From Bacteroidales bacterium (lineage in GTDB: Bacteria; Bacteroidota; Bacteroidia; Bacteroidales; UBA932): 64,000 nucleotides of DNA. The notes beneath the pieces are model-generated. The model saw only the letters and a list, made by a program, of their open reading frames with translations. It was not told where the DNA came from and did not search any database. Below, piece by piece: positions 8,348 through 50,342 of this stretch. The translations under genes and the position numbers were made by a program. How positions within the stretch are numbered: the first letter of the stretch is position 1; each line of letters opens with the position of its first letter. The stretch lies in NCBI GenBank assembly GCA_045617505.1, contig JAZLIS010000103.1, positions 41,424 to 105,423 of the forward strand. The letters run 5' to 3'.

Positions 8348-9136
8348 TCACAGCGCCTTATAGTGTTTTGCCACAAATCTGAAGAAAGGTATCCTGATAA
8401 ATTTCGGCATACATTTCTTGACTGCTCTGACGATGGATTTCCTCAAGAGATGGGATTTTCTTTCTTTGGAAACATCAATGCCTCTGGCTTCAATAATATT
8501 AAACATTTCATTTGCAGATGCCTTATAGTGCCTGAAGGTGGCGCCATCATCCATTTCCACCTTGGCTACAAGGCGGTTGCAATAGGAAAACTTATAGTCA
8601 TTAAGATAGAAATAAGACAATTGTTCAAAGTCTGCGGCATATCTGTACTTCGTATCAAACTTATGTGCCCTCAGCAACTCAGTTTTAACAAATGAAGCCT
8701 GATGGGATATGCTCATCTTGTTGTTCAGATACGCCTGTTTGGGACGCACAATGAAAGAACCGTATTCGAAAATCTGCTCAGAATCACCGTAAACCACGTC
8801 GGCACCCGGATTTGCCTGGATAAAAGCGGCGACGTCGGTTAAAACCCGATTGTCGGCAAAAACATCTCCGGCATTCAGAAACAATACATAATCGCCTTGG
8901 GCAGCATCTATGCCTTTATTCATTCCAAAATAGATGCCCCCGTCTTTTTCACTCACGTAATGCGCAATTCCGGAACGATACTTTTCGATTATCTGTTGCG
9001 CTCCATCGGTGCTTCCTCCATCAATAATGACATACTCGATATTCTGATAGTCCTGATTGATGACGGACAGAATAGTCTTTTCAATAATGTTTCTGGTGTT
9101 AAAAGAAACAGTAACAATAGTTAGTAATGGACTCAT
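8348..9136 (-). CDS. glycosyltransferase family 2
   Basis: 262 aa with an ATG start. GT-A signature: LTIVTVSFNTRN...IIDGGSTDG...FLNAGD. Confidence 0.85.
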   Translation of the reverse strand: MSPLLTIVTVSFNTRNIIEKTILSVINQDYQNIEYVIIDGGSTDGAQQIIEKYRSGIAHYVSEKDGGIYFGMNKGIDAAQGDYVLFLNAGDVFADNRVLTDVAAFIQANPGADVVYGDSEQIFEYGSFIVRPKQAYLNNKMSISHQASFVKTELLRAHKFDTKYRYAADFEQLSYFYLNDYKFSYCNRLVAKVEMDDGATFRHYKASANEMFNIIEARGIDVSKERKSHLLRKSIVRAVKKCMPKFIRIPFFRFVAKHYKAL

Positions 9137-9166
9137 AGGTATATCTATAATGCGTACTCACAGTGA

Positions 9167-9232
9167 TTATCTCCACATAAATAATTCGTTCTTCCCCTTC
9201 GTAATCCATCTCCCGAAGAATGGGCCTTCCAG
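9167..9232 (-). pseudogene. remnant of the 3' end of an AAA ATPase gene (paralog of 10021-11094)
   Basis: The minus-strand frame reads LEGPFFGRWITKG, against LEDPFFGRWVKEG* at the C-terminus of the intact ATPase. By hand alignment, 31 of 39 nt match between 9194-9232 and 10024-10062. Confidence 0.6.
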
Positions 9233-9251
9233 TTTCTACTATACAAAAAAG

Positions 9252-9452
9252 TCATCTTACGAAAATCAATTCGTCTGCAAGTTGCTCGACTGTTTTTTCA
9301 AGATATGGAGAACCGGGACGGGTGATGTCATCAGCAATTTTTGACTGCATTACTATTGAAGCGGCATCACGAGGTGAGATGTTATGTTTCGATGCAATGT
9401 AGGCTGTCAAGTTCGAAAGAAGGCTATTGGCTTTGATAATAATATCGCTCAT
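9252..9452 (-). CDS. small helical protein (DUF3791-like from memory), partner of the upstream XRE fusion
   Basis: 66 aa with an ATG start that forms an ATGA overlap with the stop of the 162-aa gene. The sequence SKHNISPRDAASIVMQSKIADDI...EQLADEL resembles the C-terminal half of its neighbour. Confidence 0.5.
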   Translation of the reverse strand: MSDIIIKANSLLSNLTAYIASKHNISPRDAASIVMQSKIADDITRPGSPYLEKTVEQLADELIFVR

Positions 9453-9937
9453 ATTAGATTCGTATCAGTTGTGATTGTACCCTTCCATATACGCCCACCA
9501 TTATTATAGCATATAACCATAAGGTCTTTGACAACCTGAGCCCTTGGCAATGTCTGCTCAAGAAGAAAATTACTTTCCATAAAGTCAACTGCCTTATAAA
9601 GGAGCAGAAACTTAAAAGCATCAGAATTAGTCATACCATACTCTTGGGCAAACCAGAACGTTCCAATGGACAGGAACTTGGATTTCAGGTCGCGGTTTAT
9701 GGGACTCTCCTCATAGCCCGGAATCTGAATCACCATCCGCTCTCCCATCAATTCGATAAGAGCAGCTGACTCTTCTGCCGAGATTCTTTTTTGCCCGTTT
9801 TCAATCTTGCTGATTCCACTTTTGCTCATTCCCACCAGACGGCCCAACTGTTCTTGAGTCATATTTTTGGACTTGCGGACTGAAGAAATCTTGCTTCCAA
9901 GTATATTCGCCGTATCACAATCAAATTTCTGTTTCAT
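9449..9937 (-). CDS. XRE-family HTH fused to a DUF3791-like C-terminal domain
   Basis: 162 aa. The HTH reads MTQEQLGRLVGMSKSGISKIENGQKRIS. The C-terminal FWFAQEYGMTNSDAFKFLLLYKAVDFMESNFLLEQTLPRAQVVKDLM fits the DUF3791 pattern as I recall it. Confidence 0.7.
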   Translation of the reverse strand: MKQKFDCDTANILGSKISSVRKSKNMTQEQLGRLVGMSKSGISKIENGQKRISAEESAALIELMGERMVIQIPGYEESPINRDLKSKFLSIGTFWFAQEYGMTNSDAFKFLLLYKAVDFMESNFLLEQTLPRAQVVKDLMVICYNNGGRIWKGTITTDTNLI

Positions 9938-9981
9938 AATCCTACAAATCCTACAATACTACAATATGGGACAAATATAAC

Positions 9982-10009
9982 AATAAGTTTCCAAATTTGG
10001 AAACTTATT
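9982..10009. promoter_or_regulatory. perfect 28-bp palindrome AATAAGTTTCCAAATTTGGAAACTTATT (operator and/or terminator)
   Basis: Lies 12 nt after the ATPase stop and directly upstream of a minus-strand TATATTTG -7 box (9979-9972) that precedes the XRE fusion gene. Confidence 0.6.
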
Positions 10010-10020
10010 ACAGAATATAC

Positions 10021-11094
10021 CTACCCCTCCTTTACCCACCTCCCGAAGAATGGGTCCTCCAATTCGTAATGGTCTGTCTTATTGACATATCCGAGCCGGA
10101 CTAATTTCTTCAACGAGCTGAACAGCGTGCTTTGGGCCGTGGTCTTGTCTGAAACAAGTTTCTTCCCGTCAGCAAGAATGGTCAGCACACGTCTGTCCGT
10201 CCGGTTAAATGTTCCCCAGAATCGTTCGTAATCCAAAGTGTGTTCCTGAATCAGCGAAGATATTGCATATTCGACCACATCGTCATACCTGTTCTCGTAT
10301 ATCATCTTATCGTACACCACTGAGGCAAGTTGTTGAGTGTAATATGGGTGCAGCGATGTAAAAGACAATATTCCCTGAGTTATTTCTTCTTTTGAGCAGG
10401 ACTCTGATTCCGGCACGGAGGGGAGTCGTTCGACTATATATGAGTAGAAATCGTTATATGGAATCTTTTTCAGGTTCATCCTTTGACCGAAATGATAGAA
10501 CGGAGATTTCTTCTTTTCAAAGATATCTGTCATCATCGATTCCTGCGAACCCATAAAAATATAGTTGATTCCTTTTTGCCGTTGGATGATGGATCGCAAC
10601 TGCTTGGGAAGTTTCTCATCTATATCACATACTTCCTGGAATTCGTCAAACACCACTATCATCCGCTTATCTTTTCTCGAGACCTTTTCGATTAGCGACA
10701 TCGCGTCTTCCAAAGCAATGAATTTGTCTTCACCATACTGAAAGAATGAGACATCCCAACCGTCATTCACAGGATTGTATGTAAGTCTGGGGGCTATCCT
10801 GAATTGGGACAGCAATAGCCTTATCTTTTCAATGGGGAACAATGAACAGATGGATTTGACAATTTGAGAGGACAAATCATCAACACTCAACACTTTCATC
10901 ATATCAATGGTGATGGCCGGCCGATCCAGTCGGGTAATTGCTTTGTTTATCAAGCTGCTTTTGCCGAATCTCCTTGGCGAAATCAAGACAAGGTGGTTCT
11001 CACTGTCCAATTTATGCAATACCTCTTCCAATTCCTTTACACGGTCAGTAAAGAAATCTTCTTCGACAATGGTTCCGAATTTAAATGGATTCAT
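10021..11094 (-). CDS. AAA/Arch-ATPase-like ATP-binding protein
   Basis: 357 aa with an ATG start. Walker A is SPRRFGKSSL and Walker B is IVVFDEFQ. The N-terminus NPFKFGTIVEEDFFTDR is typical of ATPase_2/DUF234-type proteins. Confidence 0.75.
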   Translation of the reverse strand: MNPFKFGTIVEEDFFTDRVKELEEVLHKLDSENHLVLISPRRFGKSSLINKAITRLDRPAITIDMMKVLSVDDLSSQIVKSICSLFPIEKIRLLLSQFRIAPRLTYNPVNDGWDVSFFQYGEDKFIALEDAMSLIEKVSRKDKRMIVVFDEFQEVCDIDEKLPKQLRSIIQRQKGINYIFMGSQESMMTDIFEKKKSPFYHFGQRMNLKKIPYNDFYSYIVERLPSVPESESCSKEEITQGILSFTSLHPYYTQQLASVVYDKMIYENRYDDVVEYAISSLIQEHTLDYERFWGTFNRTDRRVLTILADGKKLVSDKTTAQSTLFSSLKKLVRLGYVNKTDHYELEDPFFGRWVKEG

Positions 11095-11112
11095 AATCAG
11101 TAATGTAGTGTA

Positions 11113-11167
11113 TTCGAAAATATTCGATACGAAATTTTTCGATTACGAAATTATGAATATTTTCGAA
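11113..11167. promoter_or_regulatory. 13-bp inverted repeat TTCGAAAATATTC / GAATATTTTCGAA upstream of the ATPase gene
   Basis: Arms lie at 11113-11125 and 11155-11167, starting 19 nt upstream of the ATG at 11094. Further CGAAA/TTTCG words occur between the arms. Confidence 0.4.
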
Positions 11168-11424
11168 CATTACAAAAAAACTGATTATTTCATCCGACCA
11201 ACTCATTTGCATCAATATGTAGTACCAAAGCTAGCCTGGTGACTGTGCTGAAATTCGCAGACTACTATTTTTGGATAACCCCATACTCAAGAATGGTGTC
11301 AGAAGCAAGATCAACTCTGTCATTCCAGAAAATACAAGTCCTGATAGAATCAAGTTGTGCGTCAAAGCAGACATAGAGCTTTTAGTCCTGTTGCTTTATC
11401 AACTCTCCTGCATTAAGAAGGATC

Positions 11425-12156
11425 TCACGGCAATTCCTTGAATTCCATTATATCCAGCATGCTGTAGAGAATGCCGTCAATGCTGGATGTCCAGGAATGA
11501 TGGAAGTGTCCGTAGAACCAATGCAACAGCGGATGACCATTCTGCTTCAGGAAGTCCAGTACTCGGTCGATTTCACATCGTTCATACTGACAGTCGACAG
11601 ACAAAGAAGGGTCTTTCTCAAGCCAATAGTCAAGACTGGCTTTTGTTACGAATTCACAAAAGGAAGGGGCTGTATGGGTGATTACCGTGTCGATGCGGCA
11701 CTCTGACGATATCTCCATCAGTTTGTCGGCATTGAAAACCGGTTTCTCGTCTTTCCAATAGCTTATTTCCGCTCTCCTGCTGCTACGGTCTACGCTAACC
11801 GCACCTCCTACGCATAGAATCTGATGGCCACAGGCTTTCAACACTGCATAATCAGGAACACAGCGGAATCTGTCGTGCTGAACCTTCTCGTCATTGAAAT
11901 AGGACGGATCATCGTGATTCCCGCGCAGCATCACCACCCAATTGTTTGAGCGGCTCAATTTGTTAAGCACACGTTTGTAGATGTGCTCATAATACCCCAG
12001 CTTCTCAAAACCGAATCCACAGTCACCCGCTACTATCAGGAGAGTATCAGTCATGCGGTATCTATCACAGAGTCTATAGACCAACTCCGTGAATTCTCCG
12101 TGAATATCGCCAGATATAACTATTGACCTGGCTTCGGCAAACTCAAATGACCTCAT
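11425..12156 (-). CDS. calcineurin-like metallophosphoesterase (lambda-phosphatase/PPP-like motif set)
   Basis: 243 aa. Motifs are SGDIHGEF, VAGDCGFG, RGNHDD, ITHTAP and YGHFHHS. The ATG at 12156 overlaps the upstream stop (ATGA). Confidence 0.8.
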   Translation of the reverse strand: MRSFEFAEARSIVISGDIHGEFTELVYRLCDRYRMTDTLLIVAGDCGFGFEKLGYYEHIYKRVLNKLSRSNNWVVMLRGNHDDPSYFNDEKVQHDRFRCVPDYAVLKACGHQILCVGGAVSVDRSSRRAEISYWKDEKPVFNADKLMEISSECRIDTVITHTAPSFCEFVTKASLDYWLEKDPSLSVDCQYERCEIDRVLDFLKQNGHPLLHWFYGHFHHSWTSSIDGILYSMLDIMEFKELP

Positions 12157-13010
12157 TGCGATCTTATGATTTCGGCCATTCTGGATAAGGCCCTTGATAT
12201 GGTTTCAAACGAACTGGTTCTTGCATAATCAGCGAGATCGTTAAGTAGATAGCTGTCTTCTTCCAGAGCGACTTCGCTGTTTATCAGTGACGAATACAGG
12301 TGTCTGTGCTCCTCGGAAAGAATTGTCTTCATCTCAGACGCGAGCCACTCTGCTCCGGCAACGGTAATATCAAAGGAATCGGCATCCAGGCTGATTTCAT
12401 TTGGAATACCATCTGACTTGAGCGCAAGAGTGATATAGGCATTTTCAAGGAAGAACTGCATGTCGGCAGCATCTTTCCGCGTCCTGAGATGACGATCGTT
12501 CCAAGCATCCAGTTTAATGAGCCACTGCCCGCTCATAGATGCTATCCTGAATGACAGAGTCACGTCAATTGTTATCTGTAATGCATGGCTCATGACATCG
12601 GAGAAACAGCGTACCGACATCACTGGATTACCATCAGGCGGCCATGCGACACGCTCATCAGAGGCAATTGCGCCGAATGGGACGACATCAACCTCGTATA
12701 CAGCGGATGAATCTGGAACCGAGTACAGGAACTTCTGTTTTTCCGGAGCTTTCTTGAACCCCTTTCTCTCAAGTATCGACGTCAGAGCATCGTACTCATC
12801 CCACTGCTCGAGGAACACGGCTACATCAAGATCCATTGTCTGCCTCGGAGCATCCTCCACTCCAAGGGCCTTCAACAATATATCGCGTGCGGCAGCGCCT
12901 ACTACATACAGAGGTGCACCCATTTCATCGTATGCCTGCTTCAATGCCTGCAACGTCCTCAGGATGGCCGGATTGCCTATCTGATTTCCACTGATTCTAT
13001 ACTCTTTCAT
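12153..13010 (-). CDS. nucleotidyltransferase, AbiEii/DUF1814-like
   Basis: 285 aa. It has a pol-beta-type head VVGAAARDILL...DLDVAV, a third acidic strand YEVDVVPFG, and KLDAWNDRHLRTRKDAADM, which resembles the AbiEii K...R...(R/K)DxxD motif. Both gene ends have ATGA overlaps. Confidence 0.6.
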   Translation of the reverse strand: MKEYRISGNQIGNPAILRTLQALKQAYDEMGAPLYVVGAAARDILLKALGVEDAPRQTMDLDVAVFLEQWDEYDALTSILERKGFKKAPEKQKFLYSVPDSSAVYEVDVVPFGAIASDERVAWPPDGNPVMSVRCFSDVMSHALQITIDVTLSFRIASMSGQWLIKLDAWNDRHLRTRKDAADMQFFLENAYITLALKSDGIPNEISLDADSFDITVAGAEWLASEMKTILSEEHRHLYSSLINSEVALEEDSYLLNDLADYARTSSFETISRALSRMAEIIRSQ

Positions 13011-13582
13011 AGCAGTTCCTTTATTCTATCCGCAGTCTCCAGGCATCTGTCCTCATTCAGGGCAAGAAGATCCGCATAGACAACCATCGGAGGGACTCCT
13101 TCACTTAACCAGAATTTTTTGTAGACATAAATCTCCCCGTTCTCGTCAGGGACCATCCTTCCGGTGGAAATGAGCGCGTCAGTCTTTTCGGGGACATAGA
13201 TGTCCCATCTCTCCGGACGGATATAATCTGTCAGCAGGTATGCAGCTGGCTCGCCTCCCCAGCAGATTCCCTGCGGAAGAGAAATGTCTTTCCACTGTTC
13301 GCGCACTGACGGGGCCAGAAAACGAAACTTGCATACCAGATATTTCTGCTTGAGGCCGTCAGCATAGCCTCGCGACCAACGCTCAATCAACTGACGGCGT
13401 TTCCGAACAGCCTTCCCCTTAGAAGTCTCAACAATGTAGCCTGCCTCTGCCAGTTCGTGAAACTTAGTCTGAACTGAGCCCAGAGACATACCTGTATTTT
13501 CAGATATTGTCCTTAACGGCTTATTTACGTTCTCCTTATCCTCCAAAAGGTAGAACAATAGTTTCATCTCAGATTTCTGCAT
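13007..13582 (-). CDS. winged-HTH protein, AbiEi-like putative antitoxin/autoregulator
   Basis: The wHTH-like segment reads LRTISENTGMSLGSVQTKFHELAEAGYIV, and the length (about 190 aa) matches AbiEi. The track start at 13597 is TTG, so I prefer the ATG at 13582 (MQKSEMKLL). Confidence 0.55.
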   Translation of the reverse strand: MQKSEMKLLFYLLEDKENVNKPLRTISENTGMSLGSVQTKFHELAEAGYIVETSKGKAVRKRRQLIERWSRGYADGLKQKYLVCKFRFLAPSVREQWKDISLPQGICWGGEPAAYLLTDYIRPERWDIYVPEKTDALISTGRMVPDENGEIYVYKKFWLSEGVPPMVVYADLLALNEDRCLETADRIKELL

Positions 13583-13603
13583 GTCCGTATAATTCAAGCA
13601 ATG

Positions 13604-13622
13604 TGTTCAAAATTTTTGAACA
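13604..13622. promoter_or_regulatory. 19-bp palindrome TGTTCAAAA-T-TTTTGAACA, candidate operator of the three-gene operon
   Basis: Perfect 9-bp arms, lying 22 nt upstream of the ATG at 13582 and downstream of the predicted promoter. Confidence 0.5.
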
Positions 13623-13648
13623 TTCAAGTAAAATTGAACGCTGATGGG

Positions 13649-13679
13649 CAAAATTAGCTAATATTTAGAATATTACAAA
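13649..13679 (-). promoter_or_regulatory. Bacteroidetes-type promoter TTTG-N19-TAATTTTG for the wHTH/NTase/phosphoesterase operon
   Basis: On the minus strand, TTTG sits at 13679-13676 and TAATTTTG at 13656-13649, with a 19-nt spacer. This matches the TTTG / TAnnTTTG consensus. Confidence 0.55.
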
Positions 13680-13716
13680 TATTTTATCAATTTCAGAATA
13701 CCTTTTCTATCTTTCA

Positions 13717-13786
13717 TACATCCGTTCAAATGTAAAAATACAACATCAGGCGACAATTAAATCCGATAGGATGTAGAAAAGATGTG
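13717..13786 (+). repeat. direct repeat copy 1 (about 70 bp), downstream of hicB
   Basis: Shares about 61 of 70 aligned positions with 14619-14685. The shared 32-bp perfect core is AACATCAGGCGACAATTAAATCCGATAGGATG (13742-13773). Confidence 0.85.
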
Positions 13787-13839
13787 CGTCAACTTTTGAT
13801 GGTTGATTCCGGTTATTGTAGATAATAAGACAGCCTGAT

Positions 13840-14241
13840 TCACAGATGGGCAGCAAGAAGGCATCGCCCGCATTCGTGAAGTGCGGATTCTATTTTTTTC
13901 AGTTGCTTGGCAGAAATATAGGTTTTCCCCTGTCTGTACTGCCTCATCAAGGACGGATTGATACCCGCTCTTGCAGCAAATTTCCCAACATTTATGAAAT
14001 CATAGCAATTGAATAGAGCCGCAAGGTCATATTTGTATTCAAATGTGAGATTCTGAAGTTCCTCGGGAAGACTTTCACCGCCCCCGCTGAATTGTTCACA
14101 CACCTCCCTATAAGTCGATTCAAAATCCTCCTTTGCAATACTTGCGGTTGTCCCCTCTCCCACAATCGTTGATTCAAGATCAGGAGCATATACACTGTAT
14201 GTTCCGTCTTTCCCTTTCTCAATCAGTGCTATCGTTTTCAT
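13840..14241 (-). CDS. hicB: HicB-family antitoxin
   Basis: N-terminal HicB-like fold (KTIALIEKGKDGTYSVYAPDL) plus a C-terminal HTH-like segment. The ATG at 14241 overlaps the hicA stop (TGATG). Confidence 0.75.
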   Translation of the reverse strand: MKTIALIEKGKDGTYSVYAPDLESTIVGEGTTASIAKEDFESTYREVCEQFSGGGESLPEELQNLTFEYKYDLAALFNCYDFINVGKFAARAGINPSLMRQYRQGKTYISAKQLKKIESALHECGRCLLAAHL

Positions 14242-14423
14242 CAAAAACCTATCTGTTTTCTTAATTTGTAATATAGTCCAGGCTTAACTTCTTCTTTATC
14301 ATGTCGTTCCAGGACAAGAACATCATTTCTGTCCGGATGCCTGAAAATGTCGTGCCGAGAACCATGACTCCATAAATACCAGCCATTAGCCATCGCTATC
14401 CTTCTTACCTCACTCCACTTCAT
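14241..14423 (-). CDS. hicA: HicA-family toxin
   Basis: 60 aa counted from the ATG at 14423. MKWSEVRRIAMANGWYLWSHGSRHDIFRHP is the typical HicA/YcfA pattern. The track start at 14435 is TTG. Confidence 0.8.
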   Translation of the reverse strand: MKWSEVRRIAMANGWYLWSHGSRHDIFRHPDRNDVLVLERHDKEEVKPGLYYKLRKQIGF

Positions 14424-14520
14424 CTTTCGCCACAAATATATAATAAAAATGTTATATATTATCCTACAAAGTTAATATTTGCAACTGATTTTGCAGTCCA
14501 AGTATAAGAATTTTCACTCG

Positions 14521-14566
14521 AAAAAAAAAACGTAAATCCTATAACCAGGAACAGATTTACGTTTTT
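14521..14566 (-). terminator. rho-independent terminator (bidirectional shape: A10-stem-T5)
   Basis: Stem CGTAAATC / GATTTACG is extended by A/T pairs. On the minus strand the hairpin is followed by T10, which would end the XRE transcript. Confidence 0.7.
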
Positions 14567-14618
14567 GTGGAAATTTCAGTGTTTCGAAAACCTGCACAAA
14601 ATTGTAACTTTGTAAAAG

Positions 14619-14685
14619 TACATTCGTCAAATGTAAATATAACATCAGGCGACAATTAAATCCGATAGGATGCAGTAAAGACGCG
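14619..14685 (+). repeat. direct repeat copy 2 (about 67 bp), upstream of hicA and inside the 3' UTR of the XRE gene
   Basis: Contains the same 32-bp perfect core at 14641-14672. Confidence 0.85.
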
Positions 14686-14720
14686 TGATATCTCAGAGCC
14701 TATTGATATAAGGAACAATA

Positions 14721-15050
14721 CTATTTCTTACCTCTGCTCTTTGAAGCCCGCTTGCGAATCTTAATTTTTGCCGCCTGCACAGCATTGAAATATTCGTTCG
14801 GGCTCAATTCCTCTTCCTCCACCAAAGGCAAAAGTATATCCATTTTCCCTAAGATCCGAAGCACCCTTACAAACGAATCGAAGGATTTGATTTCCCCCTC
14901 TTCCATTCTTACGATTGAGGATACCGATACACCGGTACTGTCTGCCAAATCTTGCCTGGAAATATTTTGCTTCAACCTGACCCCCTTTAATCTGTCTGAA
15001 ATTCTCTTCACGATTTCAGTATCAGACAGCATATAGAAATTTTCTACCAT
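14721..15050 (-). CDS. XRE-family HTH protein (HipB-like antitoxin architecture)
   Basis: 109 aa with an ATG start. The HTH reads ISRQDLADSTGVSVSSIVRMEEG, followed by a basic C-terminal tail KIRKRASKSRGKK. Confidence 0.75.
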   Translation of the reverse strand: MVENFYMLSDTEIVKRISDRLKGVRLKQNISRQDLADSTGVSVSSIVRMEEGEIKSFDSFVRVLRILGKMDILLPLVEEEELSPNEYFNAVQAAKIKIRKRASKSRGKK

Positions 15051-15104
15051 ATCAAATTTGATAAATTACACAGCAAATATAGTAATTAATTATCAAAATT
15101 GATA
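15051..15104. promoter_or_regulatory. two related palindromes, ATCAAATTTGAT (15051-15062) and TATCAAAATTGATA (15091-15104); candidate XRE operators
   Basis: Both sit directly upstream of the XRE start codon at 15050 and share TCAAA/TTTGA half-sites. Confidence 0.4.
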
Positions 15105-15129
15105 CTTTAAGACCAATAAAAAAAAATCT

Positions 15130-16146
15130 CTATCTCTTAATCAGTCTGTCTATCTTCCAGAAGAGTTTATTGTTTCTCCTCCACTTCCAGAGGGTGCTCT
15201 TGTAGACGGTTTCGGCAATTCCTCTTGGAGACATTCTATATGAATGTTCGCGAGTCCGGGCAAGATTCAGATAACGCCGCCCCCAATAGAAACGATTGTA
15301 TCGGGTGGCTTCTGATGGATTCTGGTCAAAAATATGATAGAGGAAACCGCGCAGCTTTTCAATCATTTCGTCCCGTGAAGGGGCTTCGGGCACGAACACT
15401 TGGGCATTTAAGACCTCCAGACAGGCGGCATCGTCATTGTCAAGCCCCCTTACTCGTTCCACAACTTTTTCCCAGGATTCAAAAGAGTGGCAATTGATGA
15501 ATGAATTCTCGTTGAACGTCTGGTTGATCAAAGGATCTCCCCAATAAATTGGAATAGTTTGGGCAGCAAAAGCCTCAAGTAATTTTTCTGTTGTATATCC
15601 GGGCTGAGAGCAATTCTCGAATGCTATTGCAAACTTATGTTTTTTCTGAAATTCAAGTTTGTCAGTGACAGGTCCTCCGACGTTGTTTCGATATCTTCCT
15701 CCCGATGAAATCTGTTTATATTCAGACAATTTATCAAAAATGATATCACGTTCGGGAGATGCGTTGTTGTTGGATACGACAAAGCTGCAAAAACCTGTCT
15801 TTGAAGATAAATCAACGAGTTTTTTTCTGTTTGAGATTTCCTTATACGAATCTTCATATAGAAGATAAAATGGAAATCTGAAATAACGGTCGCCAAAAAC
15901 AATATGGTCGAAACCTATGGCATAATCACAAAGATTGAAATCAGCGGATTGGTTTTCTCCGGTATAAAAGATTTTTATGCAATCATATTTCAAATGTTCC
16001 TGCCCGAATACCGAAAAGAAGATATAATCCGGCTTATCCGACAGGGTCACATCATATTTCTCATTCAGAATTTTATAGAACAAGGTCTCTTCCGGAAAAA
16101 AAATATCCCAAAAATCTACAAATCCTATTTTAATCTGATTCTTCAT
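15130..16146 (-). CDS. glycosyltransferase family 10 (alpha-1,3-fucosyltransferase-like)
   Basis: 338 aa. HKFAIAFENCSQPGYTTEKLLEAFAAQTIPIYWG matches the GT10 FucT motif. Confidence 0.8.
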   Translation of the reverse strand: MKNQIKIGFVDFWDIFFPEETLFYKILNEKYDVTLSDKPDYIFFSVFGQEHLKYDCIKIFYTGENQSADFNLCDYAIGFDHIVFGDRYFRFPFYLLYEDSYKEISNRKKLVDLSSKTGFCSFVVSNNNASPERDIIFDKLSEYKQISSGGRYRNNVGGPVTDKLEFQKKHKFAIAFENCSQPGYTTEKLLEAFAAQTIPIYWGDPLINQTFNENSFINCHSFESWEKVVERVRGLDNDDAACLEVLNAQVFVPEAPSRDEMIEKLRGFLYHIFDQNPSEATRYNRFYWGRRYLNLARTREHSYRMSPRGIAETVYKSTLWKWRRNNKLFWKIDRLIKR

Positions 16147-16147
16147 A

Positions 16148-16930
16148 CTATCCGAACAACAAATCTTTTATCGCCATTCCATAGCCCTTTTTCAGCAGAA
16201 GAAGGGTCAATGCACATCTGTACTGAGAATAGAGGCCATTACGCTTTGCGAAGTGAATTATTGACTTTATTGAGCGCACACGGACAGAGGCACGTCTGCG
16301 GTTTTTCTTTTTGCTGATAGACTCTTCGTGCAGAACATAGTGATACAGAGGCTTGTGTATTTGCGCAATCTTATCGGCAGAAAGGACGCAGCAAGTTAGA
16401 AAACAAGTGTCCTCAGCGCAAAAAGTACTAGGGAATGTAATCCCATTTCTCGTCACGAACTCTTTTTTAAATATATATGTCCAAATGTATGAAACAAAAT
16501 GTGTTAAAAAATATCGTTTACATCTATAATTCGTGTTAGTTACAACCACCTTTTCACCCCAGTATGCATCGCAGCAGGCCATATCTGCACCCGCGGCTTC
16601 TGCTGTACCATACAACTCCTGGCAATATGACGGCTCCACATAATCGTCACTATCGACAAATGCGACATACTCCCCTTTTGCCAACTCGATACCTACATTC
16701 CTTGCGGCTCCAGGGCCGCTGTTTGTCGAAGTCTCGGCACAGACAAACGATTTCCCACCGGAATATTCTGAAATAAACCGGTGCACTTTGTCCATACTGT
16801 CATCCGTCCCGTGGTCATCGACAAGAATAATCTCAATATTTTCCAAAGTCTGGCATGCTAAAGACTCCAAACAAGAAACAACATACTTGCCGGAGTTATA
16901 AATTGGGACTATGACAGACACTTCAGGCAT
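16148..16930 (-). CDS. glycosyltransferase family 2
   Basis: 260 aa with GT-A motifs VSVIVPIYNSGKYV...VDDHGTDDS...VDSDDYV. Confidence 0.85.
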   Translation of the reverse strand: MPEVSVIVPIYNSGKYVVSCLESLACQTLENIEIILVDDHGTDDSMDKVHRFISEYSGGKSFVCAETSTNSGPGAARNVGIELAKGEYVAFVDSDDYVEPSYCQELYGTAEAAGADMACCDAYWGEKVVVTNTNYRCKRYFLTHFVSYIWTYIFKKEFVTRNGITFPSTFCAEDTCFLTCCVLSADKIAQIHKPLYHYVLHEESISKKKNRRRASVRVRSIKSIIHFAKRNGLYSQYRCALTLLLLKKGYGMAIKDLLFG

Positions 16931-30033: not shown

Positions 30034-30163
30034 TATAGTAGATATTTATGAAATTGTCTATGTTACAGGTTTTTTCCAAACAGCCGGCAAATATAGTAAA
30101 TTTTGAAAATGTCAACAAAATTATTAGATTTGCAGGGATTGAACGATAGAAAAACACTATACG

Positions 30164-33968: not shown

Positions 33969-33999
33969 TTTGCACATTCAATTATTATTCTTATATTTG
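33969..33999 (+). promoter_or_regulatory. Bacteroidetes-type promoter TTTG-N19-TATATTTG for rpsF-rpsR-rplI
   Basis: TTTG at 33969-33972 and TATATTTG at 33992-33999. Confidence 0.55.
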
Positions 34000-50129: not shown

Positions 50130-50315
50130 TACGAGTGCCTGCCCCCGGGCCCTCTTCGTTTGACTTTGCTATGCCAGGTCTTCTGACTCGTCCTTCACAC
50201 GCGCCTTCCCATCGAAATGACAGTGGCTAAGAGTGCGTATGTATCCATAGGACTTACAGCTGCGGGCACAGTTCAGGTCTTGCACCTGATTCCCTTGACC
50301 ATAACCTGCCGCAAA
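50130..50315 (-). promoter_or_regulatory. cobalamin (B12) riboswitch
   Basis: The minus strand reads ...AAGGGAATCAGGTGCAAGACCTGAACTGTGCCCGCAGCTGTAAG...GCCACTG...GGGAAGGCG...AGTCAGAAGACCTGGCA (B12 box), directly 5' of btuB. Confidence 0.85.
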
Positions 50316-50342
50316 GATACAAAACATTCTTTTTTGCTCAAA
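50312..50342 (-). promoter_or_regulatory. promoter TTTG-N19-TATCTTTG for the riboswitch/btuB operon
   Basis: The minus-strand TATCTTTG box is at 50319-50312 and TTTG at 50342-50339. Confidence 0.5.

Follow-up and report, generated by a model that had tools for sequence, protein, structure and literature searches.

We describe a three-gene operon in a 64,000-nucleotide (nt) stretch of a Bacteroidales genome (assembly GCA_045617505.1, contig JAZLIS010000103.1, positions 41,424 to 105,423), the whole of which is referred to here as the window. The genes, encoded on the minus strand and called g1, g2 and g3, are predicted to specify an AbiEi_2-family antitoxin that is also a transcriptional regulator, a divergent nucleotidyltransferase (NTase) that would be the toxin, and a calcineurin-like metallophosphoesterase (MPP) translationally coupled to it. 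Comparison of homologous loci shows that the position behind the NTase gene is taken by any of three phosphatase families. We propose, with a probability of about 0.5, that g3 is a dedicated phosphatase that would reactivate the toxin within a three-component module of the AbiE/MenAT type. Database and model matches are used throughout as family assignments, and statements on the function of the trio are predictions from sequence, structural models and analogy.

Results

Three phosphatase families occupy the position behind the nucleotidyltransferase

A profile of the g2 family (NTase-A) was used to scan one genome per species (GTDB), and the gene immediately downstream of NTase-A was classified by open reading frame (ORF) extraction, tblastn and Pfam. 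The scan gave 56 loci, 51 of Bacteroidales type and five outside Bacteroidota. An AbiEi_2 gene lies directly upstream of NTase-A in all 56. A coupled phosphatase gene, or its remnant, is found in 33 of the 51 Bacteroidales-type loci and belongs to one of three families. The family of g3 (T1) is present as five intact genes and three remnants. A second metallophosphoesterase family (T2) is intact in 18 loci, cut by the contig end in one and truncated in three, and PP2C (PF13672/PF00481) is intact in two and cut by an insertion sequence (IS) element in one. No third gene was detected in 18 Bacteroidales loci and in all five loci outside Bacteroidota. T2 proteins are Metallophos proteins of ~260 amino acids (aa) with the motifs MKIQFVSDLHLEF...GNHDFY...THHVP...GHSHRN, and a phmmer search with g3 found none of them at E≤10. 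The third gene starts inside the NTase gene, with an overlap of 4 base pairs (bp) in T1 and T2 loci and of 14 bp in PP2C loci. Equivalent trios were seen independently on metagenome contigs. Synteny of the phosphoesterase with the AbiEi/AbiEii-like pair, which the initial annotation had named as a check on its reading, is therefore borne out: a coupled phosphoesterase is found in many other genomes.

The two intact PP2C genes are in a Parabacteroides metagenome-assembled genome (MAG) and in the complete genome of a cultured strain, Bacteroides finegoldii JCM 13345 (AP027244.1). In a UBA1680 Bacteroidales locus, the PP2C gene has lost its 3' end to an IS-type transposase ORF of 518 aa (L062:5422-6978). 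Three trio-bearing contigs that are typical of Bacteroidales (L021, L024 and L037) come from MAGs that carry the labels Lachnospiraceae, Eggerthellaceae and Clostridium; the labels likely reflect mis-binning, with horizontal transfer as the alternative.

The nearest locus, at 95% identity, is in a 'Candidatus Cacconaster equifaecalis' MAG. In near-identical DNA of this organism (L017:4855-4950, JAGHVE010000156.1), g3 has suffered a clean internal deletion of ~637 bp while g1 and g2 are intact; ~10 N-terminal and 24 C-terminal codons of g3 remain, out of frame. This allele is a natural, near-isogenic version of the trio that retains only the pair.

Since two dissimilar metallophosphoesterases and a PP2C can fill the same slot, the activity that they have in common would be phosphate-ester hydrolysis. 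PP2C enzymes act on proteins, as Ser/Thr phosphatases, and their presence among the occupants narrows the shared activity to a phosphoprotein substrate, for which the toxin itself is the obvious candidate.

Phosphoesterases are also coupled to other nucleotidyltransferases

T2 was further scanned for in metagenomes, where 78 loci had readable upstream sequence. It stands behind an NTase in at least 55 of them, eight with NTase-A and 47 with a different enzyme that we call NTase-B. The latter has 261 aa and no Pfam match, and its head (...IIGGTACD...PRATHDIDMIV...) has the PR-x-T-x-D-x-D pattern of NTase-A. In gut and rumen Bacteroidales (L091-L153, e.g. L102:1760-4253), NTase-B operons consist of a gene for a protein of ~320 aa, again with no Pfam match, followed by NTase-B and T2, all overlapping. 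The idea that T2 is exclusive to the g2 family was dropped, as only 8 of the 78 loci fit it and most of the others follow a different NTase. In six T2 loci (L082:1542-2856, L087:2978-4316, L075, L076, L085 and L089), a helix-turn-helix (HTH) protein of 181-187 aa with only generic winged-HTH matches in Pfam (HTH-B) is encoded upstream in place of an NTase. Its gene overlaps the T2 start directly in two of the six, and the gap of ~700 nt in the other four may hold a decayed gene.

The T1 family is far larger than NTase-A, with 1,802 matches as against 329. We also gave up the notion that the g3 family is a dedicated partner of AbiE, as several close homologs of g3 stand alone. Among six such "stand-alone" contexts that were sampled, four have an AbiEi_4-like gene just upstream of T1. 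These genes (185-189 aa, with the motif ...ELIQVRRGVYAT...) precede T1 by ~60-165 nt in L010:3317-4768, L156:2817-4268, L073:428-2314 and L154:3072-4277, the one in L154 being truncated to 123 aa. The toxin gene is absent from these four loci or decayed, as in L073, where PF08843 fragments lie between the two genes and are fused to T1 in gene call P0196.

Because T2 follows both NTase-A and NTase-B, and T1 also sits behind AbiEi_4-like genes, phosphoesterase genes appear to have been recruited repeatedly to NTase toxin-antitoxin (TA) operons in Bacteroidales. Judged from these loci, decay has taken either of two courses: some operons have lost the phosphatase and kept an intact pair, and others have lost the toxin and kept an intact phosphatase.

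The operon has a Bacteroides-type promoter and a conserved palindrome

The ORFs and the minus-strand sequence confirm the arrangement given by the initial annotation, three minus-strand genes joined by ATGA stop/start overlaps at 13007-13010 (g1/g2) and 12153-12156 (g2/g3). The in-frame ATG at 13582 is more likely than the TTG to be the true start of g1, since homologs align from residue 4-6. The promoter that had been proposed upstream, TTTG-N19-TAATTTTG at 13679-13649, is present (Table 1). A -33/-7 pattern of the TTTG-N19-TAnnTTTG type is an established Bacteroides promoter type, and it has four matches in the window compared with 0.2 expected by chance. Sites of the form TTTG-N18-21-TAnnTTTG lie at the equivalent relative position in most homologous loci. 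The other exact matches in the window are at 30102-30132 (+), 33969-33999 (+) and 50312-50342 (-). A scan for sigma-70 promoters was discarded in favor of this pattern, as its counts were at chance level and uninformative for Bacteroidales sequence.

Between the promoter and g1 lies the palindrome with 9-bp arms noted earlier, TGTTCAAAA-N-TTTTGAACA, which is perfect and is the sole match in the window (0.03 expected). Its core, TGTTCAA-N5-TTGAACA, is found ~22-49 nt before the g1 start in ~40 homologous loci, where it stands just downstream of a promoter-like site. That the core is kept in so many loci when the proteins are only ~50% identical is a phylogenetic footprint, which argues that the palindrome is more than chance and provides strong comparative evidence that it serves as an operator. 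AbiEi autoregulates through inverted repeats, and by analogy g1 would be expected to bind at 13604-13622. A second perfect inverted repeat, TAATATT-N3-AATATTA at 13659-13675, is located in the promoter spacer between -33 and -7; it may be due to chance, since the sequence is AT-rich.

Gene 1 is an AbiEi_2-family protein

The product of g1 matches PF09952 (AbiEi_2) over residues 65-194 at 7.2e-24, with 85 bits against a cut-off of 21, and residues ~5-65 match the winged-HTH families HTH_36, TrmB and HTH_24 in Pfam. The earlier description of g1 as AbiEi-like with a winged HTH is thus upheld, and the protein has the composition of an AbiE/MenAT antitoxin, an N-terminal winged HTH followed by a C-terminal AbiEi-family domain. 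The layout of such systems, an antitoxin-then-toxin bicistron with an inverted-repeat operator, also appears to be present, as judged from the ATGA overlap, the gene order seen in 56 of 56 loci and the conserved palindrome. The AbiEi_2 proteins of L062 and L065 carry an extra N-terminal domain of ~120-130 aa and reach a total of 297-318 aa.

Gene 2 is a distant relative of the DUF1814 toxins

The g2 protein could not be placed in any family of Pfam, NCBIfam or PHROG, and PF08843 (AbiEii) was not matched at E≤1. The same family is weakly matched by 14 of 33 g2 homologs, with a best value of 9.8e-6. PDB sequence searches with g2 alone and with its family profile gave no useful relative, and the connection to MenT emerged only from a structural model. 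The AF2 model of g2 has a predicted local distance difference test (pLDDT) score of 89, and its top Foldseek matches in the PDB are MenT1 (8an5/8an4), JHP933, ANT(2'')-Ia and TglT (6j7p); the match probabilities are 0.97-1.0, but the template modelling (TM) scores are only 0.35-0.42. Similarity to CCA-adding enzymes is weak.

The NTase motifs that had been quoted for g2 are all present. These are VVGAAARD, T58-M-D60-L-D62, EVD108VVPFG and K166LDAWNDR173...K179D180AAD183, which together supply every element of the NTase catalytic pattern: hG[GS/A], [DE]x[DE], a third acidic residue and K...R...KD..D. In the family alignment, most of the catalytic residues do not vary; over 33 sequences, conservation is complete or at least 90% at V37-G38-A39, D60/D62, D108, K166, D168, R173, K179-D180 and D183. 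The NTase-A family comprises 1,481 clusters at 50% identity (E≤1e-10). Taken together, the conserved motifs, the weak PF08843 matches of relatives and the nearest folds suggest that g2 is a distant relative of the DUF1814 toxins and not a Pfam-level member. Of the earlier claim of an AbiEii-like NTase, the fold stands, as MenT1 and TglT are nearest and 14 of 33 relatives match PF08843, whereas g2 itself does not reach the Pfam threshold for AbiEii.

In the MenT toxins and AbiEii, phosphorylation falls on a Ser or Thr of the alpha3-beta2 loop that precedes the first catalytic Asp by two residues, and T58 of g2 is predicted to occupy the corresponding position. All 33 NTase-A members have T58 and D62, and D60 is conserved in at least 90% of them. 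In the secondary structure of the AF2 model, helix 38-48 and strand 61-67 are joined by a loop that carries T58, and the spacing of T58 and D60 matches that of T39 and D41 in MenT1. Consistent with this, hhalign aligned the heads of NTase-A and NTase-B at 86% probability, with the Thr of PRATHDID facing T58.

Gene 3 is a generic metallophosphoesterase

The product of g3 matches PF00149 at 1.4e-10 (42.4 bits, cut-off 21.5) and PHROG 1649 at 1.9e-20. The binuclear phosphoesterase motifs reported for it are there, GDIHG (12097-12111), GDCG (within GDCGFG), GNHDD and GHFH, and the metal ligands D17, H19, D45, N80, H81, H161, H217 and H219 are invariant in 35 homologs. On this sequence evidence, g3 is a member of the calcineurin-like metallophosphoesterase superfamily.

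The label "lambda-phosphatase-like" (PPP family) was not retained. The second motif, GDCGFG, lacks the arginine of GDxVDRG; the PDB sequence matches to PP2A have E values of 0.19-0.6; and the NCBIfam models PrpA/PrpB score 14-17 bits against cut-offs of ~330, the best NCBIfam match being to the SbcD subfamily. In a Foldseek search, the AF2 model (pLDDT 88) is nearest to Dbr1, Rv0805, GpdQ and LpxH, with calcineurin only at rank 28. As the TM scores to Dbr1 and Rv0805 are only 0.56-0.59, the model points to a generic MPP rather than to a specific enzyme. Uncharacterised phage MPP proteins resemble it at TM 0.71-0.73.

The trio lies in a toxin-antitoxin islet

The trio is part of a small TA/defence islet between glycosyltransferase genes of a polysaccharide locus (8348-16930, all genes on the minus strand; Table 1). 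A HicA/HicB pair at 13840-14435 is immediately upstream, so that two TA modules stand side by side. Homologous trios adjoin EcoRII/Mrr/Dcm or a PIN toxin, and HipA is also among the neighbours in homologous contexts.

Table 1. Coordinates in the window of the trio, its predicted control elements and the genes of the surrounding islet
Feature	Position	Strand	Description
g1	13007..13597	-	196 aa from TTG; AbiEi_2-family, predicted antitoxin and transcriptional regulator
g2	12153..13010	-	285 aa; divergent AbiEii/MenT-like nucleotidyltransferase (NTase-A), predicted toxin
T58-M-D60-L-D62 of g2	12825..12839	-	predicted phospho-acceptor Thr two residues before first catalytic Asp
g3	11425..12156	-	243 aa; calcineurin-like metallophosphoesterase (T1), translationally coupled to g2
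Bacteroides-type promoter	13649..13679	-	-33 TTTG (13676-13679), 19-nt spacer, -7 TAATTTTG (13649-13656)
Candidate AbiEi operator	13604..13622	.	perfect palindrome between promoter and g1 start
HicA toxin gene	14241-14435	-	PF07927, 4.6e-11
HicB-like ORF	13840-14244	-	134 aa; no Pfam match; overlapped by HicA gene
XRE-HTH gene	14721-15050	-	in islet
ATPase_2/PF01637 gene	10021-11094	-	downstream of trio
XRE-HTH+DUF3791 gene	9449-9937	-	downstream of trio
Small ORF	9252-9452	-	overlaps XRE-HTH+DUF3791 gene
GT2 gene	8348-9136	-	islet flank
GT10 fucosyltransferase gene	15130-16146	-	islet flank
GT2 gene	16148-16930	-	islet flank

Discussion

We suggest the following model for the trio. The antitoxin g1 would repress the operon through the TGTTCAA-N5-TTGAACA operator and, by analogy with AbiEi and with MenA1/MenA3, would bind g2 and make it phosphorylate itself on T58. 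The phosphate would silence g2, whose presumed action is to modify tRNA 3' ends. Produced in a fixed ratio with the toxin, g3 would strip the phosphate from T58, and the stock of silenced toxin would be kept in a dynamic balance of phosphorylation and dephosphorylation. When antitoxin activity falls, active toxin could then return quickly with no new protein synthesis; possible triggers are infection by a phage, loss of the element, or an altered supply of nucleoside triphosphates or metal. Such regeneration would otherwise be missing from a covalently inactivated toxin and would presumably be needed for abortive infection or post-segregational killing. The toxicity of g2, the phosphorylation of T58, the substrate of g3 and the trigger of the system are what we infer in this model.

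The key argument for a toxin-reactivating phosphatase is the replacement of one phosphatase family by another in the third slot. A protein phosphatase that switches the NTase on was one of the options raised by the initial annotation, and it is the one favoured by the finding of three phosphatase families, one of them PP2C. Moreover, g3 has been lost repeatedly with g1 and g2 intact, which suggests that it is not needed for keeping the toxin harmless, as would be expected of an activator and not of an antidote. The occurrence of phosphoesterases behind other NTase lineages, the invariant T58 on the equivalent loop, the TA and defence genes around the trio and its homologs, and the phosphorylation and dephosphorylation reported for MenT and AbiEii fit the proposal as well.

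Several observations weigh against this proposal. AbiEi_2 is a different family from the AbiEi and MenA antitoxins that are known to induce phosphorylation, and an operon that expresses both a phosphorylation inducer and a phosphatase implies a futile cycle. The invariance of T58 is no proof of phosphorylation, as the acceptor Thr is generally a conserved active-site residue. The fold of g3 is nearest to phosphodiesterases (Dbr1, Rv0805 and GpdQ) and phage MPPs, not to PPP protein phosphatases, and the GDxVDRG arginine is missing. The third gene is facultative: about half of the loci, the closest relative included, lack it or retain it only in decayed form. Its absence from ~18 Bacteroidales and five non-Bacteroidota loci means that a phosphatase is not intrinsic to the NTase-A family, and the PP2C variant is seldom seen, in only 3 of 51 loci. 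Finally, because T1 is commoner than NTase-A and also occurs with no AbiE gene nearby, T1 must have some autonomous activity.

The best of the alternatives, which we nevertheless consider unlikely, is that g3 is a second, enzymatic antidote, a phosphodiesterase that undoes or edits the product of the toxin, for example by trimming tRNA 3' nucleotides that the NTase has added. DarG, which reverses DarT, is a model for such an antidote. The structural relatives of g3 fit this role, as its model is nearest to Dbr1, an RNA 2'-5' phosphodiesterase (E 1.5e-7), to Rv0805, a phosphodiesterase of cyclic nucleotides, and to GpdQ and Mre11/SbcD; the SbcD subfamily is also its best NCBIfam match, and T2 is likewise a generic Metallophos protein. 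The TM scores to Dbr1 and Rv0805 are low, however. The product of the toxin would be suitable too, in that MenT and AbiEii are stated, in passages of PMC11541572 and bioRxiv 10.64898/2026.01.19.700257, to extend tRNA 3' ends, which gives a phosphodiester. What counts against this option, which had also been raised by the initial annotation, is that the homologous slot can be filled by PP2C, a fold for protein dephosphorylation and not for nucleic-acid cleavage. The deletion of g3 with g1 and g2 intact shows in addition that it is dispensable for neutralisation, although a redundant second antidote would be dispensable as well.

Less probable still is that g3 is an independent effector or accessory protein with no action on the toxin or its product, such as a toxic nuclease, a signal-depleting phosphodiesterase or a general enzyme that makes use of the AbiEi promoter. 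Homologs of T1 and T2 are abundant and sometimes occur with no NTase; relatives of g3 are found in phages (PHROG 1649 and the phage MPP proteins); and T1 is kept beside AbiEi_4-like genes that have no toxin gene or only a decayed one, which suggests a value of its own. Such a role makes it hard to explain why T2 stands behind an NTase at 55 or more of its 78 loci and why three phosphatase families independently gained an overlap of 4-14 bp with the NTase stop codon, a coupling that points to a shared function. If g3 were an effector, any effector domain should serve in that position, yet only phosphoesterases are seen. An RNA-repair module, in which a Pnkp-like phosphoesterase heals RNA ends and the NTase re-adds nucleotides, is very improbable in spite of the weak resemblance of the NTase to CCA-adding enzymes and of the phosphoesterase to the RNA-ligase-associated phrog_8238 (E 0.008), since g3 is a single domain of 243 aa, there is no kinase, ligase, Hen1 component or methyltransferase domain in the operon or flanking genes, g1 is an AbiEi_2 antitoxin/repressor, the closest folds to the NTase are those of toxins, MenT1 and TglT, the PP2C variants are unsuited to RNA end-healing and the neighbours are TA and restriction genes.

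Returning to g3 as a toxin-reactivating phosphatase, we put forward more tentatively that operon-encoded phosphatases mark an unrecognised class of three-component NTase toxin systems in Bacteroidales. The class would draw its NTases from two or more lineages, its antitoxins from two or more families and its phosphatases from three; within it, the antitoxin would drive auto-phosphorylation and the phosphatase would be a built-in reactivator. If this is true, a covalently silenced ("type VII") toxin would be capable of rapid abortive infection or post-segregational killing, and the phosphatase step would be the point where the system senses its trigger. The work on MenT and AbiEii of 2024-2026 identified a covalent phosphate as the off-switch and left the return to the active state in the cell unexplained. 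An operon that carries its own phosphatase makes toxin reactivation directly testable in a defined three-gene cassette, the more so as MPP and PP2C versions interchange among related genomes and near-isogenic strains differ only by a phosphatase deletion. A further outcome of the analysis is that gut and rumen Bacteroidales contain many NTase/phosphatase trios that lack annotation.

Comparison with known systems

The closest parallel in mechanism is AbiE of Streptococcus agalactiae. Its antitoxin induces auto-phosphorylation of AbiEii at T65, a residue structurally equivalent to S78 of MenT3 as an acceptor on the alpha3-beta2 loop; in vitro, the cellular PP2C SaSTP takes the phosphate off AbiEii-p, which thereby regains activity; and the role of a phosphatase in reactivation in vivo is stated to be unexplored (January 2026 preprint, bioRxiv 10.64898/2026.01.19.700257). 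The same preprint proposes that AbiE, formerly type IV, be reclassified as a type VII TA system. Like the trio, S. agalactiae AbiEi-AbiEii has a winged-HTH antitoxin/repressor, an overlapping NTase toxin gene and an inverted-repeat operator, and both T65 of AbiEii and T58 of g2 are Thr residues two positions before the catalytic Asp. The differences lie in the antitoxin, which is AbiEi_2 (PF09952) in the trio, unlike the S. agalactiae AbiEi type; in the toxin, as g2 itself falls below PF08843; and in the phosphatase. The phosphatase of the trio is in the operon and translationally coupled, whereas SaSTP is the single housekeeping serine/threonine phosphatase of the cell and acts in trans; the former is a metallophosphoesterase, with PP2C only in some relatives, and the latter a PP2C.

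The solved folds nearest to g2 are those of the Mycobacterium tuberculosis systems MenA1-MenT1 and MenA3-MenT3 (TakA-TglT). Arrowsmith et al. showed that MenA1 induces auto-phosphorylation of MenT1 on T39, two residues before the catalytic D41, and that NTase activity is thereby abolished (PMC11375011). The acceptor position of MenT1 T39 and MenT3 S78 is common with T58 of g2, and silencing of MenT is by auto-phosphorylation (PMC11375011). As cited in bioRxiv 10.64898/2026.01.19.700257, Yu et al. 2020 found that PstP dephosphorylates phospho-MenT3 in vitro. The likeness has its limits: sequence identity of g2 to MenT is only 13-18%, with the low TM scores given above, the MenA antitoxins are unrelated to AbiEi_2, and in the MenA1-MenT1/MenA3-MenT3 literature that we found, no phosphatase gene is reported in menAT operons.

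Among catalogued defence systems, neither PADLOC nor NCBIfam gave a family-level assignment for g1, g2 or g3, and a search of PADLOC-DB 2.0 with T2, PP2C, NTase-B and the extended AbiEi_2 proteins gave only weak matches to PDC-M21B/C and PDC-S10. PDC-M21, which has the models A, B and C and of which our literature search found no description, is matched weakly by g2 (PDC-M21B, E 1.8e-4, over 65 residues in the NTase head only) and by one PP2C third gene (PDC-M21C, E 1.2e-4), but not by the second PP2C variant; PDC-M21A is not matched by g1. These matches hint that PDC-M21 is a candidate defence system pairing an NTase with a PP2C. The trio was not taken as a member, as the matches are partial and far from family level and PDC-M21A is unmatched.

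In its proposed logic, the trio also resembles the partner-switching modules SpoIIE/SpoIIAA/SpoIIAB and RsbU/RsbV/RsbW, in which operon-encoded phosphorylation is set against a PP2C, together they set the state of one small protein, and a fast switch is obtained with no protein synthesis. The resemblance is one of logic only and not of homology. In the trio, the phosphoprotein would be a self-phosphorylating enzyme toxin, and the operon has no counterpart of the anti-sigma and anti-anti-sigma factors. Our literature searches found no description of a phosphatase encoded in the operon of AbiEi/AbiEii, DUF1814 or type VII TA systems. Set beside these systems, the pair is of a known kind, an AbiE/MenAT-type NTase TA system with a distant toxin, and it is the coupled, interchangeable phosphatase that appears to be new.

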